Translations under genes and position numbers: made by a program | Assembly (NCBI GenBank): GCA_964510865.1 | Contig: CAZEDI010000001.1 | Span: 2,297 to 66,296 of the forward strand | Source: an uncultured Halobacteriales archaeon | GTDB lineage: Archaea; Halobacteriota; Halobacteria; Halobacteriales; Hikarchaeaceae | Length of the DNA: 64,000 nt | Direction of reading: 5' to 3' | The notes under the pieces: generated by a model | Databases searched by the model: none | Seen by the model: the letters and a program-made list of their open reading frames with translations, nothing else | What the model was told of the DNA's origin: nothing | Shown here: positions 36,547 through 44,482 of the stretch, piece by piece | How positions within the stretch are numbered: the first letter of the stretch is position 1 | How the letters are laid out: every line of letters starts with the position of its first letter

Positions 36547-38325
36547 CTACCGAAGTGCGTTTAACCTGAACTCGAACGCGACGACTGGTACCTCGAGCCC
36601 ATGCTCGACGAGAACCTCGGGATGAATCTCGCCGATAACGCCCACGTGGGCACCGTCGATCACGATATCGGCGACACGTCCATCCAAGAACGTCGGGTGT
36701 TCGGACGCTGGAGTCTCGAGGTCTGCATCGAACCGCCGACAAAGGGCTTGCAAGCGTGCCTTCATATCCTCGTAGGATGCGTCGTGCCGTGCCAGCGCCG
36801 CTGCCACGGTCCGCCACTCGGCGACGTTCGTATTCTCCGTGTGATCCTCACGGGCCACGAGCCCAATCTCCGCAAGATCTTGCGGATAGGCACGATGGGT
36901 ATTGTTCGACAAGACGGTGAGAATCGATGGAAGTGCCCACGTCCTGACGATCTCATACTCCTCGGAGTAGGGTTCGGTGATCCTGACAGGCTTGCCCGTC
37001 CCGACAGTATCACCAGTACCCCAGGGTGGTCGGGTCGGCGTCCCATCATCCGGCGCGAGGCGCATCGTATCGAAGGTCCCGGCTTCGCTGACCAGGTGAA
37101 AGTTCAGCACGTCTTCGAAGCCAAGCCCCACGAGCAGCTCTCGGACCGCTCGCTCGTGGCGCGCGCGTTCGTGTCGACTACCGACGGTCGAGACGTCGGG
37201 ATAGCGCGGGTCCAGTTCGTTGAATCCGAATGCGCGCCCCACATCATCCACGAGGTCGACCGGGTGGAGGACATCTACGCGATATGGGGGAATGCGCACG
37301 TCATATGCGATCTCGTCATCGCCGACCTCCTTCGAGGTTGCATCAAGCCCCGAACGCTCGAAGAGGTCGATTGCGTCCTCTGGGTCGAGGTCAATTCCGA
37401 GGATAGTTTCGATGCTGCGATGGTCGACCGTTTTTTCATCCACGGACAGCTCAGGACGCTGCAGCTCATGGCCCTCGTCCGGGGAAATCGCGTCATCAGC
37501 GTACTGAACCTCGACAGCTTCGACCTGGCCACCACGGGCATCGAGAGCGTAACAGACGATCGTGAGCATCTTGTCGATCGTCCATTGATCGGTACCGGTC
37601 ATCTCGATGAAGAGGTCCCGCGAATCCGTCGAAACTTCGGTCCGGCGACCGTTGATCACTGGCGGGAAGGAGAAGAGCCCGAGGTCGTCATAAATCGCGG
37701 GAAGACGCTCATAGCCGGCCACAATCGGGGCGTACTCATCGCCTATCGGATGGCGTTCGAGAACCTCCCCCGGTGTCATCTCCTCGTCCGAATCGAGTGG
37801 GACGAACGTATCCTCGGAAGGCTCTAGCCCGGTATAGCGGATCGACTTCTCCCGTGCACCCTCCCCTGCACCTGGTGCTCCCTTGAGCATCGTCTGGTCG
37901 TGGACGCCGTTGGCGCCCTTCACCCGTGCTCTCCCCATCGTCGCATGCAGCTTCTCCTGGAGCTGGATCAACGACTCTAAACTCCGCTCGTCGAGGTCGA
38001 GCCCCCTGACAACCGCGCCCGTGACGTATGGACGCTGTGTGGGGACGGATTCGTCGACATATATCGTCCAGTCCGGGTCCGTGACCATGGGACGGTAGAC
38101 GCCTCGGTCGTCACCGTACTGGTAGCGAAGCGAGCGAGCCACTCCCTCGACGGAGAGGCGATCGAGCCTGTCCGGTTCGAACTCGAACTGGAGTTCGCCG
38201 TCCTCCGTGTCACCTTCGAACTCGAGTCCAAGGGCAAAGAGGTCGGACTTCAGCTGATCCTCACTCTTGTCCTCATGACCGATAAGCCGACGGAGTTCGT
38301 CCGGGTCGACGTCGACCGTCGGCAT
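36547..38325 (-). CDS. pheT: Phenylalanyl-tRNA synthetase beta subunit
   Basis: PDRLDRLSVEG.AR, LIQLQEKLH, FPPVIN, D.LHPVDL.DDV, GEIHPEVL. Confidence 0.97.
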   Translation of the reverse strand: MPTVDVDPDELRRLIGHEDKSEDQLKSDLFALGLEFEGDTEDGELQFEFEPDRLDRLSVEGVARSLRYQYGDDRGVYRPMVTDPDWTIYVDESVPTQRPYVTGAVVRGLDLDERSLESLIQLQEKLHATMGRARVKGANGVHDQTMLKGAPGAGEGAREKSIRYTGLEPSEDTFVPLDSDEEMTPGEVLERHPIGDEYAPIVAGYERLPAIYDDLGLFSFPPVINGRRTEVSTDSRDLFIEMTGTDQWTIDKMLTIVCYALDARGGQVEAVEVQYADDAISPDEGHELQRPELSVDEKTVDHRSIETILGIDLDPEDAIDLFERSGLDATSKEVGDDEIAYDVRIPPYRVDVLHPVDLVDDVGRAFGFNELDPRYPDVSTVGSRHERARHERAVRELLVGLGFEDVLNFHLVSEAGTFDTMRLAPDDGTPTRPPWGTGDTVGTGKPVRITEPYSEEYEIVRTWALPSILTVLSNNTHRAYPQDLAEIGLVAREDHTENTNVAEWRTVAAALARHDASYEDMKARLQALCRRFDADLETPASEHPTFLDGRVADIVIDGAHVGVIGEIHPEVLVEHGLEVPVVAFEFRLNALR

Positions 38326-39827
38326 TAGTACGTCACCTCCTCTGTCCGCAAATACTCGAGATCGACGAGCGTGCCATGGACGTCTCGGATGTCTTCTGCT
38401 CCAGTGACGAGCATCATGAGCCGTTCGAGGGCGAGCCCCCAGGCCATCACATCGGCATCGACGTCGAGCGGCTCTAGCATCTCCGGGCGAAAGATCCCCG
38501 AGTTCCCGACTTCGATCAGCTCGTCCGTCTCGGGGTGGGTCCCGAAGAGTTCAAAGCTCGGCTCCGTATAGGGATTATACGTCGGCTTGAACCGCAAGTC
38601 TGTAATGCCGAAGTGTTCGTAAAATTCGGTGAACGTTCCCATCAGATCACGGACTGAGAGGTCGTCAGCCATCACCCACCCTTCGATCTGGAAGAACTCG
38701 AGTAAGTGTGTCGCGTCGATCTCGTCGTTACGATAGGCTTTCTCGACGGAGAAGAATCGCCGAGGTGGCTCCAGCTCGCCGAGCGCCTCACCAGCGAGGT
38801 GGCGGGCAGATAGCGACGTCGTGTGACCCCTGAGATCGATCTGGCGGGCCATCTCTTCGCCCCACGGGGAGTGGTATCCATCGCCGTCAGGACCGACTCC
38901 CTCCCTATGCGCGGATTCGACCCGTTCGACCAGCCCTTCCGGGAGCTCCTGCATCCGGGGAACCTTGAGTGCGAACTGATCCCAGTGTGTCCGTGCAGGA
39001 TGGTCCTGGGGCATGAACAGGCAGTCGTTGATCCAGAATTCCGCGTCCGCGTGTGGACCCTCCATTTCCTCAAAACCCATGCCGACGAGAACGTCTTTCA
39101 CGCGTTCTGCCATCCGCCGGAGTGGATGGGTGCTCCCGCCGTGCATGATTTCGGCGTCCGCGGCGACATTATAGGCAGCGTAGTCTGTCGTGTCCCACGA
39201 GCCACTCGTTAGGGCCTCGGGAGTCACTCGGTCAACTTGCTCGCGAACTTCGATCCCTTCCATGAGTGCCGTCACACCGTCGTCGGTGAGGGTTGCGGAT
39301 CGAGTCGTTTGCTCGGTACGTTCGATAAGCTCGCGTCGCTCAACGTGCTCCAGGACGTCCTCGTCGGCGGGCTCACCGGAACGAACCGCCTCAAGGGCGC
39401 GTGCGTCTGGATCCTCGTCGGGATGTCTCTCTGGATTCGCGGTAATCTCGCCCCGCTCGATCTCCCCATACTCCTTTCGGGCGTAGTTCGCCAGTGCGAT
39501 GTCGACCTGATCACCGTCGAGTCCTGCCTCGTCGATAGCATCACCAAGGGGGACCGGCTCCGACTCCCCACCGAGTTCGAGCGTGGCCCGGTAGAGTCTA
39601 ACCTCGGGAAGCCCGGTTTCGGCGTATTCGGTACCCTCCCCCGTGAGTGAGATATCCAACGCGACCCCTTCTTGGAGTGCGATGAGGCCCGCTTCCTCCA
39701 GCGCGAAGAGTGCACCGGTGACTGTCTCGGGCGGGAGCTCCGTTTCGTCGGCGAGCTGTTCGACTGACATCGATTCGGTCGCGCTGGCCGTCTCGAGTAT
39801 GGCGGCCTGCGCCTGTGGGAGTTGCAT
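38325..39827 (-). CDS. pheS: Phenylalanyl-tRNA synthetase alpha subunit (archaeal)
   Basis: QDHPAR, LRGHTT, YRNDEIDATHL.EF.Q, YNPYTEPS, GNSG.FRPEM, WGLALERL. Confidence 0.97.
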   Translation of the reverse strand: MQLPQAQAAILETASATESMSVEQLADETELPPETVTGALFALEEAGLIALQEGVALDISLTGEGTEYAETGLPEVRLYRATLELGGESEPVPLGDAIDEAGLDGDQVDIALANYARKEYGEIERGEITANPERHPDEDPDARALEAVRSGEPADEDVLEHVERRELIERTEQTTRSATLTDDGVTALMEGIEVREQVDRVTPEALTSGSWDTTDYAAYNVAADAEIMHGGSTHPLRRMAERVKDVLVGMGFEEMEGPHADAEFWINDCLFMPQDHPARTHWDQFALKVPRMQELPEGLVERVESAHREGVGPDGDGYHSPWGEEMARQIDLRGHTTSLSARHLAGEALGELEPPRRFFSVEKAYRNDEIDATHLLEFFQIEGWVMADDLSVRDLMGTFTEFYEHFGITDLRFKPTYNPYTEPSFELFGTHPETDELIEVGNSGIFRPEMLEPLDVDADVMAWGLALERLMMLVTGAEDIRDVHGTLVDLEYLRTEEVTY

Positions 39828-39934
39828 AGGTTGTTGTCCGTGTTCGTGTCGTGACTGCAGTTAGCCCTTGCGAGTCCATAGCGCCAACGAAGGCGGTTTC
39901 ACCCTCCGACCGCCGGAGACGTCCACCGCCCGAT

Positions 39935-40021
39935 TCAGCTGAAAACGAAAAATCCGAATCCCAGAAAACACTCACGATCAGGCCCATCGACACAGCTCGC
40001 ATGGCGGGATTCGGGTGCCAT
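39935..40021 (-). CDS. Putative Phe-rich leader peptide (uORF) of pheST: MAPESRHASCVDGPDRECFLGFGFFVFS
   Basis: Hand-translated. ATG at 40021, TGA at 39937-39935, 5 Phe among the last 10 codons, ends 107 nt before the pheS ATG. Confidence 0.7.
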   Translation of the reverse strand: MAPESRHASCVDGPDRECFLGFGFFVFS

Positions 40022-40043
40022 ATCTCTCCAACCTGGTGACGAG

Positions 40044-40051
40044 AATAAAAA
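40044..40051 (-). promoter_or_regulatory. TATA-like box (TTTTTATT) of the Phe-leader/pheST transcript
   Basis: Lies at -30..-23 from the uORF ATG, the spacing expected for a leaderless haloarchaeal mRNA. Confidence 0.55.
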
Positions 40052-40077
40052 TGTACCGACAATTAGGTCACGCTGAC

Positions 40078-41376
40078 TCAAGCACCAGCTGTCGTGACCT
40101 GGACCGTAGTGCCGGTCACTTCGACGTCAATGAGGTTGTAGAACCCCTCGTTACCTGCCAGTATAACCGTCACATCGTCGGATATTCGTTCGATGGACAC
40201 TTCGAACTGGTCATCCACGGCATTGCGTTCCTCCGCATACGTTTCCATAGCGTTCATAAACTCATCCGCCTCACTGGGACTGTCCCATCGGTGGGCCCAC
40301 ACGACGCCCCGTGATTTGTTCTGGTAGAAGGACCTGAGGACCGCAATCTGATCAGTCCCCCACCCATCAGCTGCGGCTGCAGCCTCGTCGTCAGAGAGAT
40401 ACTCCTCCAAGACGAATCGGGTTCCGAGCTCGCCTCGCGGCCGCCGTGGATCCGGAAGCAAGGACGCAGCATGCCCGTCGATTTGCGGTTGGACGCGATA
40501 CCAATAGGATCCCGCCGTTATGTTCATCTCGAGCTCGAGCGGTTCGTCCGAGTTCTGGTGCAGGATCTGTTCCGTCGTCTGCACGGGGATGTCGCCCGAG
40601 AAGAAGTCAACGAGACCCGCGGGGGAATCCAAGGTTTCCTGGAAGTATTGCATACCTGGGCGTGATCGTTCTACGTTGTGCCATTTCTCCCAGACTGATG
40701 CATCGTCACTCCACTCGGGAGCGATATCGAGGTTCTCCCCTTCGTGATACTCCTGGGCATATGCCTGCTGGATGTAATTGACACTCCCACGAATCAGCGT
40801 ATTCGGCATGAACGCATCTTCATCTTCAGTTTCCGCGAGGGGGCCATCGATCCATCCGGTGTCGACGTTGAACGTCGTCCAGTTCTGCTGGTACATGTAC
40901 GCTCGGAAGAACTCCCCTGCGATCATGGACTGGAGTTCTGCATCGGATGCCGAATTGACGTATGAGATGTTGACGACGATTTCCTCTTCGAGCGAGTCAT
41001 ACATGTAGGGCGGCTCAACCATCGTAGATTGTGGAGAGGGAAGCGGACCGGTAAGCGCTCTGAGGAACAATCCCGACGCATTCGTGTTCCTGTTGAGGCC
41101 CGTCCCGCGATACACGACATCGATATCTGGGTACTCCGCATCGTCAATACCGGTCATCTCCTCGACGCGCTCATAGATCGTTACTGGCGAGACTGAGAGC
41201 TTAGAGGAGATCTCTTCAGATGCATCGACACTCGGACCACTGTCTCCCAGGAATGGCACTCCACTGCATCCTGCGAGAATCATAGAGAGGACCACCATTG
41301 ATACTAGTGAAATGGATCGAATTGTCTTCGGTCCCCCCGCCTGGTCATCACGTGCCGTGTCGTCAGTCACCCGCAT
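40078..41376 (-). CDS. Hvo_1808-like surface lipoprotein with degenerate zincin motif
   Basis: Lipobox ILAGC, RGELGT, AAAAADGWGTD, WAHRWDSPSEADEF. Start at ATG 41376 is uncertain. Confidence 0.7.
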   Translation of the reverse strand: MRVTDDTARDDQAGGPKTIRSISLVSMVVLSMILAGCSGVPFLGDSGPSVDASEEISSKLSVSPVTIYERVEEMTGIDDAEYPDIDVVYRGTGLNRNTNASGLFLRALTGPLPSPQSTMVEPPYMYDSLEEEIVVNISYVNSASDAELQSMIAGEFFRAYMYQQNWTTFNVDTGWIDGPLAETEDEDAFMPNTLIRGSVNYIQQAYAQEYHEGENLDIAPEWSDDASVWEKWHNVERSRPGMQYFQETLDSPAGLVDFFSGDIPVQTTEQILHQNSDEPLELEMNITAGSYWYRVQPQIDGHAASLLPDPRRPRGELGTRFVLEEYLSDDEAAAAADGWGTDQIAVLRSFYQNKSRGVVWAHRWDSPSEADEFMNAMETYAEERNAVDDQFEVSIERISDDVTVILAGNEGFYNLIDVEVTGTTVQVTTAGA

Positions 41377-41557
41377 GTCATCGTGAAAGGAGCACCCTCT
41401 TGTAAACATTTCTTTACCGCTTTCTCCGTGAAATTGCCAGTACATCGGGTTCGCTCCGCTTCACAAGTGATACCTTGCCGAAGCGGTCCCGGGTCCCAGT
41501 CTCGACAGGATTTCATGCCGACCTTCTCCCACAGCGTGGACGAAGGGGATATATCCG

Positions 41558-43138
41558 TCAACCCCGTCGTGTCGCCGCTACGTCCAGTTCAATATCGAGG
41601 TTCTCGAGCATCGCAGCCACGTCTTCTCGTTTTCCCTGGTGTTCTGCCAGGAACTCCTCCATCAGTTCTGCAGCTTGCTCCTTACACCCCCCACAGAGGC
41701 GATCACCACCGACACACTCGTCATAGACGCGTGTGGCAAACTCATCGTCGTCGCCTGCGAGCAAGTACGCGTACAACTCATAGACTGGACACTCGTCGGC
41801 CCGCCCACCGAGTTCGCGCTGGAGTTCCGCTGTCTCGCGACCGCCTGTCGTCGCGGCCAGTACCTTGTCATATCCTTCTTCGGGGTCGTCTAGCAAGCTG
41901 ATGTGGCTTGCGGGCACGGACGAGCTCATCTTTCCTCCCGTCAGTCCCGTCATGAATCGGTGATAAATGGACGAGGGCGCGTAGAATCCGTAGCCACCGT
42001 GTGCGACCTCTATTTCGCGGGCTAGCTCTTCGGCGTCGTCCCTGTCGAGGTCAAATGCGTCGACATGGGCTTCATATACCCGTTTTTCACCGTCGACTGA
42101 TTCGATCAACGCGGCAAATGCGTCCTCCGTTGCGTTGCGATCGAGGAAGCGAACGCGGGGACGGAGAGGTTCGTTGCCAGCGGCATCGAGCTTCGTCTCT
42201 ACTGACGACCGCACGGTCGACTCCTCGATGTTCGTTCGGAGCCAGTCTGCCGCTTCCTTACATCGAATCGGGTCCTCTGATTCACCCCGAAGCGTTTCGT
42301 ACGCCTCCGCGAGGAGGGTGCGCTCCGCGGGCTCGACTTCGAAACTCGCGTACGCCTCAGTGACACCGAAGTACCTCGTTCGAGCGGCGAGGTCGCGTGC
42401 CAGACGCATGTGCGGGTCCTGATCTGGTCCGACGGGAATCACCGTCGGCTTCGGCTCTTCGAGCTGGGGATACAGGATATCGGCCATCTGCGTGACGACG
42501 GACTGCATGTGCGCGACGTCCGTCTCGCCGTCAAAACCGTAGATTGCACCCAGCTCCGAGAAGTTTGCCTCGATGCCGAGCTCGAATGCCAGATCCTGCA
42601 CCTCTCTGTTTGTCGACTGACGGTACAGTTCGCCGGCCTCGGGATCGAACCCGAGTGCGAGGAGCGAGAGGAGGTAGTCCGTGGCATGCTGGTCGATCTC
42701 CTCCCAGGTGAGTCCCCGTGCAGCGTGCGCCTCGAGATCGGCGATCAGGCCGTAGGCCTCCGCACCCCGCTCCTGATGCCAGATGAGCTCGTCGAAGACG
42801 AGTTTGTGCCCGATATGGGGGTCGCCTGTGGGCATGAACCCCGATAACGTGGCGACGGGCTCGTCGTTCCGCATCGCATCAAGGACCCGTCTGTAGTCGC
42901 GATGTCCGAAAATGACGCCGCGGCGCATCAGGTAGTGTGGGTCCGGAACCTCGGGGAGGATCTCGTCGAACTCCCCAATGCCGAATTCGGTGAAGAGGTC
43001 CGCGTAGTCCCCAATCGTGGCCGAACCCCATGGATCCAAGACGACGTCGTCGGCACCTGTTGCCGTGCCGCCATCGGATCTAGGTTGCTCGTCGGCGGAT
43101 GCATCCAGTTCGTCCGTTGTATCGTGGTCGTGTGTCAT
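41558..43138 (-). CDS. trpS: Tryptophanyl-tRNA synthetase
   Basis: SGFMPTGDPHIGH (HIGH), VPVG.DQDPH-type motif PVGPDQDPH, GGKMSSS (KMSKS). Start at ATG 43138. Confidence 0.96.
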   Translation of the reverse strand: MTHDHDTTDELDASADEQPRSDGGTATGADDVVLDPWGSATIGDYADLFTEFGIGEFDEILPEVPDPHYLMRRGVIFGHRDYRRVLDAMRNDEPVATLSGFMPTGDPHIGHKLVFDELIWHQERGAEAYGLIADLEAHAARGLTWEEIDQHATDYLLSLLALGFDPEAGELYRQSTNREVQDLAFELGIEANFSELGAIYGFDGETDVAHMQSVVTQMADILYPQLEEPKPTVIPVGPDQDPHMRLARDLAARTRYFGVTEAYASFEVEPAERTLLAEAYETLRGESEDPIRCKEAADWLRTNIEESTVRSSVETKLDAAGNEPLRPRVRFLDRNATEDAFAALIESVDGEKRVYEAHVDAFDLDRDDAEELAREIEVAHGGYGFYAPSSIYHRFMTGLTGGKMSSSVPASHISLLDDPEEGYDKVLAATTGGRETAELQRELGGRADECPVYELYAYLLAGDDDEFATRVYDECVGGDRLCGGCKEQAAELMEEFLAEHQGKREDVAAMLENLDIELDVAATRRG

Positions 43139-43176
43139 TGGTCGTCGTGTCGGGTGCTCGGCAGGCGATTCGATCG

Positions 43177-43210
43177 AAAAAGCGGAGGGAGCATCGCGTT
43201 CCGGCCCCCT
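43177..43210 (-). terminator. Candidate attenuator: 7-bp hairpin plus U5 tract between the Trp uORF and trpS
   Basis: On the - strand, AGGGGGC (43210-43204) pairs with GCTCCCT (43192-43186), followed by CCGC and TTTTT (43181-43177). Confidence 0.45.
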
Positions 43211-43287
43211 TAGATCTGTCCGGCCAGAATCGCGAGACTGTCCACTTCCCGGTTCGCGTGCCAGGGCCAGGTGGAAGTGGACGGCAT
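43210..43287 (-). CDS. Putative Trp leader peptide (uORF) of trpS: MPSTSTWPWHANREVDSLAILAGQI
   Basis: Hand-translated. ATG at 43287, TGG at codons 7 and 9, TAA at 43212-43210, ends 71 nt before the trpS ATG. Confidence 0.65.
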   Translation of the reverse strand: MPSTSTWPWHANREVDSLAILAGQI

Positions 43288-43312
43288 ACCCACCCATATC
43301 GCCAGATGACGC

Positions 43313-43321
43313 TTATATTTT
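43313..43321 (-). promoter_or_regulatory. TATA-like box (AAAATATAA) of the Trp-leader/trpS transcript
   Basis: Lies at -34..-26 from the uORF ATG. Confidence 0.55.
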
Positions 43322-43459
43322 GCCCATTCGGCGGATCGGGGTGAGTGACCCTATATCAACTCCCCGAATATGTCGGTCGTTGAGGGTATCGTGGACGCAA
43401 CCCACAGACGAGATACGCGAAGATGCTGACCGATTGTGACAGGGCCGTCAGCGTGTCGG

Positions 43460-44482
43460 TCAGGGGGTAAGCCGGCCGACAGTGATCCACTCCACGTCAC
43501 CTCCATCACGGACGAGAGCAAACATGGCCTGCTTTCTAACGCCTCCAGCGAGCCTGATGTACAGTGCGAGTTCTCTGGGTTCGAACGCGTACTCGCCGGG
43601 CAATACCCAGACAAGCATTTCGGAGTGTCCGAGCTGGGAGACGGTCGTTATCTCCGCATACGTACGGAAATCCGCACCGAACTTGAACCCTGTTTTCGGG
43701 ACGACTCCCCCTGTCCGGAGTGCTTCGTAGACCGTCAATCGTCGATTGAAGCGCTCACCCTCGACAATTCGCCCGCGCTGGAGCACCTCGTCTCGCCCTT
43801 CGTCAATGGTTAGGACGTCGCGTGCAAGGTAGGCGGCCTCGAGGAGCGAAAGTTGGAGTGCGTCGGCCTCCTCACGACCCTGGAGCGGTTGCCCGTAGAA
43901 CCCTCGATCGTACAGTCCAGGTGGTGGGTCGGGGACGAGCACGCGGTCAGAGAGAAGAATACCCGCTGTCTGCGGGGGACTGAATGTGGTTGTCCCCTCT
44001 GGAGCTCCCCGTCCCGACTCGAAGTAGCTTACCTCACCTTCTTCGTCGACGACGGCGAGTGCGATATCACCGAGATTCCGGGCTGGAAGTGTCGTGCGCT
44101 CGCCGACCACGCGGAGCTGGTGTGCGACCGTTCCATCGGGGGGCGAGGCGCCACGCTCAAAGACGGTATAGTCAGCATTCGGATGCGGATCGGTCACCCA
44201 CCCCGCCCGTGCGGGGGCGAGATAGATCCCTCGAGAGCGGAGGTCCGCGTACGTCAGGAACCGGGCTCCTACACCCTGTTCCTGAATCGATTCGAAGAAC
44301 GCCACGAATCCGTCCCCGTCGACAGCCGTCAGATCTCCCCGAAAGAGCAGGTGGGCGGCCTCGACAGGGGCCAGTGCGATCTCGTTTCCCTCGAGTGGTC
44401 GCCCGTAGCCCCGTGCGTCGTGGAGCCGTTGTCTGGCATCACCTCCGACCACGACCACGTCTCCCCGTCGCTCGCCGTCCAT
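43460..44482 (-). CDS. endA: tRNA-splicing endonuclease (alpha2 type)
   Basis: Duplicated EndA fold, L.LSLLEAAYL, VPKTGFKFGADFRTY, H.E, AGGVRK. Start at ATG 44482. Confidence 0.95.
   Translation of the reverse strand: MDGERRGDVVVVGGDARQRLHDARGYGRPLEGNEIALAPVEAAHLLFRGDLTAVDGDGFVAFFESIQEQGVGARFLTYADLRSRGIYLAPARAGWVTDPHPNADYTVFERGASPPDGTVAHQLRVVGERTTLPARNLGDIALAVVDEEGEVSYFESGRGAPEGTTTFSPPQTAGILLSDRVLVPDPPPGLYDRGFYGQPLQGREEADALQLSLLEAAYLARDVLTIDEGRDEVLQRGRIVEGERFNRRLTVYEALRTGGVVPKTGFKFGADFRTYAEITTVSQLGHSEMLVWVLPGEYAFEPRELALYIRLAGGVRKQAMFALVRDGGDVEWITVGRLTP

Follow-up and report, generated by a model that had tools for sequence, protein, structure and literature searches.

The window, a 64-kb stretch of a contig from an uncultured archaeon of the Halobacteriales, encodes a tryptophan--tRNA ligase gene, trpS, on its minus strand (41558..43138; 526 aa). 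The product is a class I Trp/Tyr-type tRNA synthetase (Pfam PF00579, E 3.5e-42), and its closest relatives are all named tryptophan--tRNA ligase. We corrected the annotated start of trpS in this contig to the ATG at 43138, from which the protein begins MTHDHDTT...; across 64 loci and 120 proteins, N-termini begin MT(R/H/D)D... at the homologous place. The 579-aa enzyme that would begin at ATG 43297, the form listed in the protein database (P0001), is an over-extension; the upstream frame is closed in relatives.

Upstream of trpS and on the same strand lies a short leader ORF (uORF, 43210..43287) of 25 sense codons and a TAA, with its ATG at 43287..43285 and its stop at 43212..43210; read from the sequence, its product is MPSTSTWPWHANREVDSLAILAGQI. 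The uORF ends 71 nt before the true start of trpS. TGG occurs at codons 7 and 9 (43269..43267 and 43263..43261), giving the putative regulatory codons TGG-CCC-TGG (Trp7, Pro8, Trp9; 43261..43269), which fall in the loop of a predicted RNA helix, P1. A TATA-like box, AAAATATAA (43313..43321, minus strand), occupies -34..-26 from the A of the uORF ATG, GATAT at 43300..43296 reads as a WW-type -10 element, and GGTGGGT occupies -7..-1, abutting the ATG. Because GGTGGGT is too close to the ATG for a Shine-Dalgarno site, the uORF start is better read as leaderless. An earlier, sequence-only reading of this DNA had quoted the leader ORF, the TATA-like box at this spacing and the GGTGGGT before the ATG, and all are present exactly, on the minus strand.

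The promoter spacing invoked in that reading extends beyond the window: 19 of the 21 members of the family described below have an A/T-rich, TATA-like box at approximately -34..-26 from the uORF ATG, and a WW-type box near -12 could be read by eye in the family's upstream sequences. This geometry is consistent with published haloarchaeal promoter motifs, in which a TTWT TATA box and a CGAAA BRE are combined with WW at -10; leaderless mRNAs make up 72% in H. volcanii (PMC4983044). The window sequence has no A/T-rich box 24-34 nt upstream of the trpS ATG itself. We predict from these motifs that a haloarchaeal-type promoter puts the transcription start at, or a few nucleotides from, the uORF ATG, and that translation of the uORF would begin right at the start of a leaderless transcript. 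A scan for generic sigma-70 promoters and hairpin-T terminators is uninformative for an archaeon; its simple hairpin-plus-T search had no match.

Taken by itself, the Trp content of the window's uORF is barely above chance. Across the six frames of the whole window, 24 of 255 ATG-initiated ORFs of 15-40 codons (9%) contain at least two Trp codons and 3 (1%) contain WxW, which bears out the caution in the sequence-only reading that two Trp in 25 codons could be a chance occurrence. The case for the uORF goes beyond chance because it is conserved in orthologous leaders. We found the same element upstream of trpS at 20 further haloarchaeal loci (21 members with the window), with homologous leaders at 12 of 64 species-representative loci and at 8 of 12 loci reached via close TrpRS relatives. 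Cultured species that carry it are Halorientalis persicus, H. regularis and H. pallida. WxW, WxWxW or WxWxWxW is present in 19 of the 21 members, with up to four Trp, and each of the 49 TGG triplets that lie between the ATG and arm B, the downstream strand of P1, is in frame 0 (a count that omits 9 TGG made by ATG plus G, and one out-of-frame TGG in the divergent member L191). Conservation of TGG in orthologous leaders had been named beforehand as the comparison on which a Trp-containing leader peptide upstream of trpS would stand or fall; the homologous 5' ORFs uphold that proposal, with a response to Trp-tRNA presumed.

Several features of the family point to the uORF being translated. At 18 other loci the homologous uORFs are 23-29 codons long. 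As long as the frame stays open, members differ in length only by multiples of three, and in all members with a uORF that continues through arm B the ATG lies 45, 48 or 51 nt from a GGACAG motif. The uORF of L191 has 16 codons and that of L190 only 9, with a stop directly after WRW. In L190 the distance from ATG to GGACAG is 44, which indicates that frame is lost once translation ends, and its cut ORF retains M...WRW and the RNA elements. Together with an ATG at leaderless distance from the promoter (19 of 21 members), the multiples-of-three length changes and the loss of frame after the L190 stop are in silico signs of translation. The middle codon between the Trp codons varies (CGC, CCC, CCG, CAC or TGC), and the peptide C-terminal of them is variable among members.

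A regular expression for the core of arm B returned no more members among the collected trpS loci. A metagenome scan with the 17-nt core GGRAGYGGACAGTSTCG was set aside, the pattern being too short: 2 real fragments (L093 and L148) were present in 120 returned stretches, and the others were chance matches in contigs of soil or marine origin that had no trpS close by.

The RNA structure that the sequence-only reading invoked for the leader is present in silico, in the form of two mutually exclusive helices that share one strand. Arm A, GTCCACTTCC (43273..43282), comprises uORF codons 2-5 and is the 5' strand of P1. The shared strand, arm B, is GGAAGTGGAC (43240..43249), which in the window starts 10 nt past the last Trp codon and pairs either with A, forming P1 and enclosing the Trp codons, or with a downstream element D, burying a pyrimidine tract. 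Between B and D lies a hairpin, P2 (CGCGATTCTGGCC ... GGCCGGAACGCG; 43195..43234), with the uORF TAA in its apical loop. Element D, GCTCCCTCCGCTTTTTCG (43175..43192), is a pyrimidine tract with T5C, its T5 at 43181..43177. The spacer from D to the trpS start (43139..43174), which like the other features is on the minus strand, carries a weakly conserved CGAG(N)AGC box (CCGAGCAC in the window). Shuffled sequence pairs with D just as well as this box does (z about 0), and we assign the box no role.

Evidence for P1 came from energy, compatibility and covariation. The A:B duplex has an energy of -18.5 kcal/mol in the window, with a z of -3.9 against shuffles and about -4 in most of the family, and the helix was recovered by RNAalifold. 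On the full MAFFT alignment RNAalifold gave P1 only; P2 was misaligned by length variation and was therefore assessed sequence by sequence, and A:B and B:D were assessed on an alignment with P2 cut out. Across 20 sequences P1 is 94.5% paired, compared with 31-48% in slid controls. It covaries through AU/GC exchange, with 2 pairs changed on both sides in 11 cells, and its covariation score is reached by 0 of 500 shuffles. The compensating changes swap amino acids (Thr/Ala and Val/Ala), indicating that it is the RNA pairing that is kept and not the peptide sequence. P1 starts 5 nt past the uORF ATG and may itself hinder leaderless initiation.

The alternative helix, B:D, is 94.1% paired across 20 sequences and 42-60% when slid, but two-sided covariation is almost nil (1 pair and 2 cells, with the score reached by 11 of 500 shuffles). 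Clear covariation is thus confined to P1, and covariation supports B:D weakly. Shuffling the downstream sequence gives B:D duplex energies as good as the real one (z about 0), and we dropped the energy as evidence; the support for B:D consists of its conserved position and its 94% compatibility. P2 is a stable hairpin in all 20 members assessed (-16 to -42 kcal/mol, mean z -2.65) and was also seen in folds of single leaders, with the stop codon unpaired in its loop in 15 of the 20. When the stretch under a ribosome stalled at Trp was blocked, modelled as the first Trp codon plus 13 nt, the predicted minimum-energy fold flipped from P1 to B-P2-D in most members; in three, the window among them, the unconstrained minimum-energy fold already contains B:D. 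These models suggest mutually exclusive helices between which ribosome position would choose, as a leader-peptide attenuator requires.

Element D is conserved in alignments A1 to A3. It contains a T4-T6 run in 13 of 20 members and CTTCTCC-type tracts with no T run in the other 7, which rules out a U-tract terminator as the universal output. Runs of T5 or longer are rare, with only 9 on the minus strand of the 64 kb. In 14 of 20 members B:D extends 2-3 bp past the pyrimidine run, so that the tract would be buried and would not form a free tail. T/U tracts are used in archaeal termination, and the factor aCPSF1/FttA binds U-tracts of nascent RNA. Intrinsic oligo-T termination takes place with the U tract still within the polymerase, so B:D could act only on a step that follows its emergence, which is an assumption of the model below. 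An H. volcanii reporter showed 95% termination at a T stretch, in a study that also classes T5C as a strong terminator (PMC7237163), and U-tracts of terminators are bound by the KH domains of aCPSF1 (PMC8716108). We regard D as a candidate termination or cleavage signal.

Based on these observations, we conclude that the element is probably a leader-peptide attenuator acting in cis on trpS, with ribosome speed as its gauge of charged tRNA-Trp; its output step and polarity we infer. The leaderless uORF would be read at the 5' end of the transcript, with the Trp codons in the P1 loop and the stop codon in the P2 loop. With Trp-tRNA plentiful, or with the uORF untranslated, A would pair with B and leave D single-stranded, and the free D would act as a termination or cleavage signal, so that few transcripts would reach trpS. 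With Trp-tRNA scarce, a ribosome waiting at Trp7/Trp9 would cover arm A and leave arm B free, 10 nt past the last Trp codon, to pair with D on its emergence. With D buried in B:D, transcripts would continue into trpS and TrpRS would rise, closing a negative feedback loop. We assign the ON state to the stall on a physiological argument, because an essential synthetase needs negative and not positive feedback.

Some of the same observations would also fit a switch acting after transcription, on trpS translation initiation or mRNA stability, in the manner of the translational attenuation of ermC and cat. For example, while B is held by A, D could mask an SD-like box (CGAGGAGCG or CGGAGA) located 12-25 nt upstream of the trpS AUG. 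In Halorientalis and in L057, L029, L021 and L186, a GGAG-containing box is paired with D in the P1-state fold and freed in the stalled-state fold, and the start region of most Halorientalis members becomes more accessible, going from about 0.5 to about 0.7. Such a switch would also account for the members with no T run. Against it, the accessibility change is inconsistent outside Halorientalis, and the window's version of the box (CCGAGCAC) is degenerate and too distant from the AUG for a classical SD. Duplexes of D with the box (E) are at the level of shuffled sequences (z about 0), and for that reason the main model does not have D masking the SD-like box or the trpS start. We consider a post-transcriptional output unlikely.

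The same leader peptide and RNA switch could also work with reversed polarity. Judged by bacterial rules, B-P2-D with the U5 that follows it resembles a hairpin terminator, and P1 would then be the anti-terminator: a stall at the Trp codons would lead to termination, and smooth translation, or a ribosome escorting the polymerase, to read-through. In the predicted folds the stalled-state stem ends just 5' of the U run, which is the geometry of a bacterial terminator, and 31-38 nt separate the uORF stop from the end of the T run further downstream, about the minimal ribosome-to-polymerase spacing. Hairpins also lie upstream of 503 H. volcanii termination sites, and one hairpin alone gave 59% termination (PMC7237163). 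This polarity would nevertheless make expression of an essential gene drop along with Trp-tRNA, a positive feedback towards collapse. Escort of the polymerase would be impossible in L190, where the ribosome would leave the RNA about 60 nt before D, and neither the 14 of 20 members in which B:D runs past the U run nor the seven with no U run fit a hairpin-U terminator. We therefore judge reversed polarity to be quite improbable.

A structured cis-regulatory RNA in which the ORF is incidental would bind a factor directly, such as tRNA-Trp (T-box-like, via UGG), TrpRS or a TRAP-like protein on the UGG repeats. The UGG triplets are regularly spaced in a hairpin loop, the covariation is in RNA pairing and not in peptide sequence, and L190 keeps its RNA elements despite a 9-codon ORF, all of which such an RNA would explain. 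It would leave unexplained why every one of the 49 TGG is in frame with an ATG at leaderless promoter distance, why indels keep to multiples of three only as long as the ORF stays open, and why even the cut L190 ORF keeps M...WRW. A conserved CCA anticodon mimic is not evident in the aligned leaders, and Rfam returned no matches, to the T-box or otherwise, in the whole window at gathering thresholds or at E up to 10 in 39800..43400, which spans the Trp leader and a Phe leader described below. This reading seems very improbable to us. That no regulatory element exists, and that the uORF is a chance ORF in a long intergenic region (9% of small window ORFs do have at least two Trp) or part of the 579-aa extended TrpRS from the gene-caller start at 43297 (a frame that is open into trpS in the window and is in the protein database), is a reading with almost nothing left to it, since the comparison gave 21 conserved loci with coding and structural signatures, the extension (MGGYAVHF...) is basic, non-halophilic in composition, not conserved and closed in relatives, and ATG 43297 lies only 15 nt past the TATA box, probably upstream of the transcription start.

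The parallel Phe leader to which the sequence-only reading had also appealed is real, and it counts in favor of the attenuator reading of trpS. It lies upstream of pheS on the minus strand (39828..40051) and consists of a T-rich TATA box (40051..40044), a leaderless uORF (40021..39935) with the product MAPESRHASCVDGPDRECFLGFGFFVFS, and a structured spacer of 107 nt that separates the uORF from pheS (ATG 39827). A Phe-rich leader of pheS is kept across several haloarchaeal families, far more widely than the Trp leader. As a tentative wider proposal, plausible without being probable, ribosome-mediated attenuation may exist in Archaea in a form tied to the archaeal way of ending transcripts, in which a leaderless sensor ORF would either expose a single-stranded U/C-rich tract to hairpin-independent termination or cleavage by aCPSF1/FttA or sequester the tract within a helix ("terminator hiding"). 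On that view, haloarchaea would have a wider set of amino-acid-sensing leaders, of which the trpS Trp leader and the pheST Phe leader, present Halobacteria-wide, would be the first two members.

Leader-peptide attenuation is a textbook bacterial mechanism that needs coupled transcription and translation, and we found no description of it in any archaeon in the searchable literature. As judged from sequence, the clustered cognate codons in a 5' ORF that mark a leader-peptide attenuator are present here. The classical case is the E. coli trp operon attenuator with its trpL leader peptide (Yanofsky 1981, as summarized in PMC4007540). Like it, the archaeal leader has a short ORF with clustered Trp codons, exclusive helices of which one would be controlled by the ribosome, and a T/U tract before the regulated gene, and it would sense charged tRNA-Trp via ribosome speed. 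It differs in its archaeal host, in regulating a synthetase gene and not a biosynthetic operon, and in having a leaderless, SD-free leader ORF. A, B and D, three strands that exchange partners, together with a constant P2 take the place of the four segments of E. coli trp, and the Trp codons are in the loop of the first hairpin. The archaeal stalled-state helix contains the U tract, whereas its counterpart in E. coli trp competes with the terminator hairpin. The Rfam searches gave no sequence or covariance-model similarity between the two.

Closer in regulated gene are two bacterial synthetase systems. The E. coli pheST operon is controlled by an attenuator with the pheM leader peptide, and Streptomyces coelicolor trpRS1 is reportedly governed by a ribosome-mediated attenuator, in work credited to Vecchione and Sello in 2010. 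In both, an aminoacyl-tRNA synthetase gene is under a leader peptide enriched in its cognate amino acid, and the window has the corresponding pair, with trpS preceded by a Trp leader and pheS-pheT by a Phe leader. The E. coli and Streptomyces systems are bacterial, their leader ORFs are SD-led and their intrinsic terminators are of the hairpin type, and our searches do not suggest homology. In the bacterium Deinococcus deserti, fourteen leaderless leader peptides have been predicted, including a Cys-containing one before cysS (de Groot et al. 2014, PMC4007540). They share with the haloarchaeal leaders a sensor ORF that would be translated leaderless, but they operate with a bacterial polymerase and bacterial terminators, and they were predicted from transcription start maps, compared with the comparison of 21 loci used here.

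Two other Trp-responsive devices have features in common with the haloarchaeal leader. In Firmicutes, trpS is preceded by a T-box riboswitch, to which uncharged tRNA binds directly, with no need for translation. The riboswitch shares with the archaeal leader the regulated gene, the signal (tRNA-Trp charging) and a UGG in a loop, but the archaeal frame, start and stop signatures indicate translation and Rfam gave no T-box match to E 10; we do not assign the leader to the T-box class. In the E. coli tna operon, tnaC senses free Trp via a conserved nascent peptide (W12, D16 and P24) that stalls at the stop codon. The result is control of Rho-dependent termination, in which a Trp leader peptide of about 24 residues governs access of a factor to the RNA past its stop. 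The combination of a Trp leader peptide with a factor-access step is also what we propose here, for aCPSF1/FttA. Unlike TnaC, the archaeal peptide past the Trp codons is not conserved as protein, and L190 stops right after WRW; the variable C-terminus, the residue-altering compensatory changes and uORFs of 9-29 codons do not agree with arrest of the TnaC type.

Structured 5' leaders have been considered untypical of haloarchaea (PMC4983044). If confirmed, the trpS leader would offer a compact natural system for reading out how transcription and translation are coupled, and how premature termination is regulated, in Archaea, and would show a leaderless ORF serving as a sensor. It would also supply a Trp- or Phe-responsive part for haloarchaeal genetics, and it would explain how an aminoacyl-tRNA synthetase is placed under feedback control in the carrier organisms.

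On the minus strand of the window, the tRNA-splicing endonuclease gene endA (stop at 43460) is followed by a 321-nt gap, trpS, a 455-aa ORF (41445..40078), pheS (39827..38325) and pheT. At E up to 1e-3, the 455-aa ORF matches no Pfam family; its place is occupied in relatives by PQQ-type beta-propeller, TspO or VapBC pairs, and these different genes indicate that the slot between trpS and the Phe leader is variable. TrpRS from 64 genomes and 120 database relatives starts with MT(R/H/D)D... at the equivalent position, and on these homologues the true trpS start is ATG 43138 (MTHDHDTT..., 526 aa, PF00579). Judged the same way, the database protein P0001, a 579-aa form read from ATG 43297, is over-extended by 53 codons; the extension is basic and non-halophilic, its frame is closed in relatives, and it crosses the entire Trp leader (43297..43139, minus strand) in another frame. 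The nearest TrpRS relatives are just 76 to 79% identical to the window protein, suggesting that the host is an undescribed haloarchaeal lineage.

The Trp-containing ORF that a sequence-only reading had placed upstream of trpS is found exactly as quoted, on the minus strand (ATG 43287, TAA 43212..43210). It encodes the peptide MPSTSTWPWHANREVDSLAILAGQI, with TGG as codons 7 and 9. Both upstream signals that had been claimed are also present, namely, the TATA-like box AAAATATAA (43321..43313, minus strand; −34 to −26 from the ORF ATG) and GGTGGGT abutting the ATG. No A/T-rich box occurs 24 to 34 nt upstream of the trpS ATG in the window, so trpS probably relies on the leader ORF promoter or on read-through from endA. 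The earlier caution about chance was warranted: taken singly, this ORF is a weak case, given that 24 of 255 ATG-ORFs of 15 to 40 codons (six frames, whole window) contain at least two Trp and 3 contain WxW.

We therefore rest the case on comparison of trpS loci from 64 species-representative genomes, with the small ORFs upstream of each listed. A homologous ORF precedes trpS in 12 of these loci, from seven Halorientalis and five uncultured Halobacteriales/Haloarculaceae (for example, MAASVGWRWRWQNSPEADSLATPALQ); endA overlaps or abuts trpS in 24, leaving no space for a leader. Eight of 12 further contigs reached via close TrpRS relatives carry the leader (L185-L190, L193, and the divergent L191), which is missing in L192, Halomicrobium (L194), and a Haloarculaceae isolate (L195), the latter two with an endA-trpS gap of only 64 to 84 nt. 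A core regular expression run over the collected loci yielded no additional member. Across the loci compared, the Trp leader thus appears patchy and confined to one part of the Halobacteria. In two metagenome-assembled genomes (L021:2884-3010 and L026:2806-2995), the leader precedes an MTRRDD.../MPAND... start, and ∼100 to 190 nt further on, in frame, come a promoter-like box (AAACGAACGGTTTTTGCG) and another start, of the MTDD/MTRD type; the 5' end appears to be duplicated, with one regulated and one unregulated start.

Conservation of a Trp-containing ORF before haloarchaeal trpS, proposed as a check on the sequence-only reading, is borne out: WxW, WxWxW or WxWxWxW is kept in 19 of 21 leaders, and L023 and the fragment L093 have a single Trp. 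Every one of the 49 TGG triplets from the ATG to arm B of the RNA helix P1 is in frame 0, a count that leaves out nine TGG formed by ATG plus G and one out-of-frame TGG in L191. The inter-Trp codon varies freely (CGC, CCC, CCG, CAC, or TGC), and the ATG lies 45, 48, or 51 nt from an invariant GGACAG wherever the ORF crosses arm B. The L190 ORF (1366-1395; MASTSRWRW, then stop) ends straight after WRW, and its spacing is 44 nt, suggesting that the frame constraint is gone once translation ends. Arms A and B, P2, and D are kept in this natural truncation and the downstream frame is lost by 1 nt, so translation is probably needed solely for the start-to-Trp part. An A/T-rich TATA-like box at −34 to −26 (19 of 21 members) and a WW-type box near −12, read in the same upstream sequences, match promoter motifs described for haloarchaea in PMC4983044, which also puts the leaderless share of H. 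volcanii mRNAs at 72%. Together, the Trp motif, frame, spacing, variable codon, and promoter geometry point to an ORF that would be translated starting at the transcript 5' end.

The appeal of the sequence-only reading to RNA structure also held up. Arm A (43282..43273, minus strand; codons 2 to 5) pairs with arm B (GGAAGTGGAC; 43249..43240, minus strand) in P1, which encloses the Trp codons, is recovered by RNAalifold, and has a duplex z of about −4 versus shuffles. P1 is 94.5% paired over 20 sequences (slid controls, 31 to 48%), with two pairs exchanged on both sides (AU 9, GC 8, GU 2; UA 15, CG 3, UG 2) and a covariation score reached by 0 of 500 shuffles. Because the compensating changes alter amino acids, the constraint is on the RNA and not the peptide. 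The P2 hairpin (43234..43195, minus strand) is stable in 20 of 20 members (mean z, −2.65); its apical loop holds the stop codon in 15 of 20 and may be merely a place that tolerates UGA or UAA. On the 3' side of P2 is a conserved pyrimidine tract, D (GCTCCCTCCGCTTTTTCG; 43192..43175, minus strand), with which B is predicted to pair in place of A, spanning the P2 base. This B:D helix is 94.1% paired versus 42 to 60% in slid controls, with just one pair changed on both sides and a duplex energy no better than that of shuffled sequence. In most members, blocking the nucleotides that a ribosome at the first Trp codon would cover converts the minimum free energy fold from P1 plus P2 to B-P2-D; the window's arm B starts 10 nt past the last Trp codon, just outside such a footprint. 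The divergent L191 copy (1192-1300; MRVPLATDRWRWLSAL, then stop, 258 nt upstream of trpS) has an architecture unlike other family members, with the B-complementary arm 3' of the Trp codons and a TTAAC promoter-like box between leader and trpS.

D carries T5C in the window, where the minus strand has only nine runs of five or more T in 64 kb. T4 to T6 occurs in D of 13 of 20 members, and CTTCTCC-type tracts, still pairing with B, occur in the other seven. In an H. volcanii reporter, a T stretch gave 95% termination; the study behind it also ranks T5C as a strong terminator and hairpins and AGATC motifs as weaker signals (PMC7237163). The termination factor aCPSF1 binds U-tracts via its KH domains (PMC8716108). 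B:D runs 2 to 3 bp past the pyrimidine run in 14 of 20 members, so that the tract would be buried rather than left as a tail. AGATC, reported as a weak termination motif in H. volcanii coding regions (PMC7237163), overlaps the final codons of the window ORF (CAG ATC TAA; 43217..43213, minus strand), is unconserved across the family, and is probably there by coincidence. Species without the leader share a promoter-like box, AAGCGAAC(G/C)NTTTTTGCG, ∼30 to 40 nt upstream of the trpS ATG (L192:1440-1500, L006, L021, L026, and L064); its core, CGCTTTTT, is similar to the D core, CCGCTTTTTCG, and D may be the descendant of an old TATA box or may also serve as one.

The comparison supports a Trp leader peptide upstream of trpS; its regulatory output and polarity are inferred. 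What the sequences show is the conserved Trp-codon ORF (predicted leaderless), P1, P2, and an alternative helix, B:D, that is likewise conserved. With ample Trp-tRNA, or no translation, A:B would form and leave D exposed, leading to transcript termination or cleavage ahead of trpS. If a ribosome paused at the Trp codons, it would cover A; B would then capture D, transcription would continue, and TrpRS would rise. We chose this polarity because an essential synthetase needs negative feedback. Intrinsic oligo-T termination occurs with the tract still within the polymerase, so hiding D would presumably act only after emergence, on factor binding or cleavage. Under reversed polarity, B-P2-D followed by U5 would be a terminator hairpin, as its bacterial terminator geometry suggests, but this implies positive feedback and is unworkable in L190, where the ribosome is off the RNA ∼60 nt before D. 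Folds from Halorientalis plus a few further lineages suggest translational control via a GGAG-type box, but this is not statistically supported. The frame, start, and stop signatures, together with zero Rfam matches even at E up to 10, count against a factor- or tRNA-binding RNA in place of a translated leader. A chance ORF or an N-terminal TrpRS extension is excluded by the locus comparison.

The parallel Phe leader cited with the Trp ORF is likewise present, as an element (40051..39828, minus strand) upstream of pheS-pheT, with a T-rich TATA box (40051..40044) and a predicted leaderless ORF (40021..39935; MAPESRHASCVDGPDRECFLGFGFFVFS). The same kind of ORF, with the consensus MASEP...(P/A)GFGFFFA(A/G) and then stop, lies upstream of pheS in at least 23 of 31 other loci compared (L001, L003, L005, L006, L010, L011, L016, L017, L022, L023, L025, L026, L031, L032, L037, L040, L049, L053, L056, L058, L059, L061, and L062), spanning several families with Halobellus, Halorientalis, Natrialba, Halostagnicola, Haladaptatus, Salinarchaeum, Halostella, and others. 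Among the loci compared, the Phe leader has a much broader distribution than its Trp counterpart. Many copies contain TTC TTC TTC and no T run longer than 2, so the Phe run is no disguised T tract. Codons 3 to 5 (UCCGAACCC) pair with GGG-UUC-GG of the Phe cluster (first Phe codon) in a helix that covaries (GAACCC/GGGUUC versus GGACCC/GGGUCC), and a conserved hairpin, GGCGG...CGAAACCGCC, follows the stop; the Phe leader has no Rfam match. Between Phe leader and pheS, most loci (e.g., L005, L010, L011, L031, and L049) have the strongly conserved box GGAACCG(C/T)TAACTG(A/G)C, 30 to 45 nt before the pheS ATG (window copy CAAGGGCTAACTGCAG, about 39872..39857, minus strand); it may serve as a second promoter (BRE/TATA-like GTTAAC) or as an RNA motif. 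When the whole window was scanned for small ORFs that lie close to a promoter and carry residue clusters, only the Trp and Phe leaders were convincing.

The Trp leader shares its logic with bacterial leader-peptide attenuators (trpL and pheM-pheST) and is nearest in form to the leaderless leader peptides predicted upstream of aminoacyl-tRNA synthetase genes in the bacterium Deinococcus deserti (PMC4007540). It differs in its archaeal host, its predicted leaderless sensor ORF, its three strands around a constant hairpin, and, likely, its output via archaeal termination signals. No Rfam model resembles it, and the full-text literature searched yielded no account of archaeal leaders of this kind, which does not prove them unreported elsewhere; H. 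volcanii Ribo-seq papers call some 5'-UTR small ORFs reminiscent of leader peptides, no more. On this comparative evidence, we conclude that the Trp leader is real, with a proposed output and polarity, and that it is a known kind of regulator, differing in form, in a domain for which we found no description of one.
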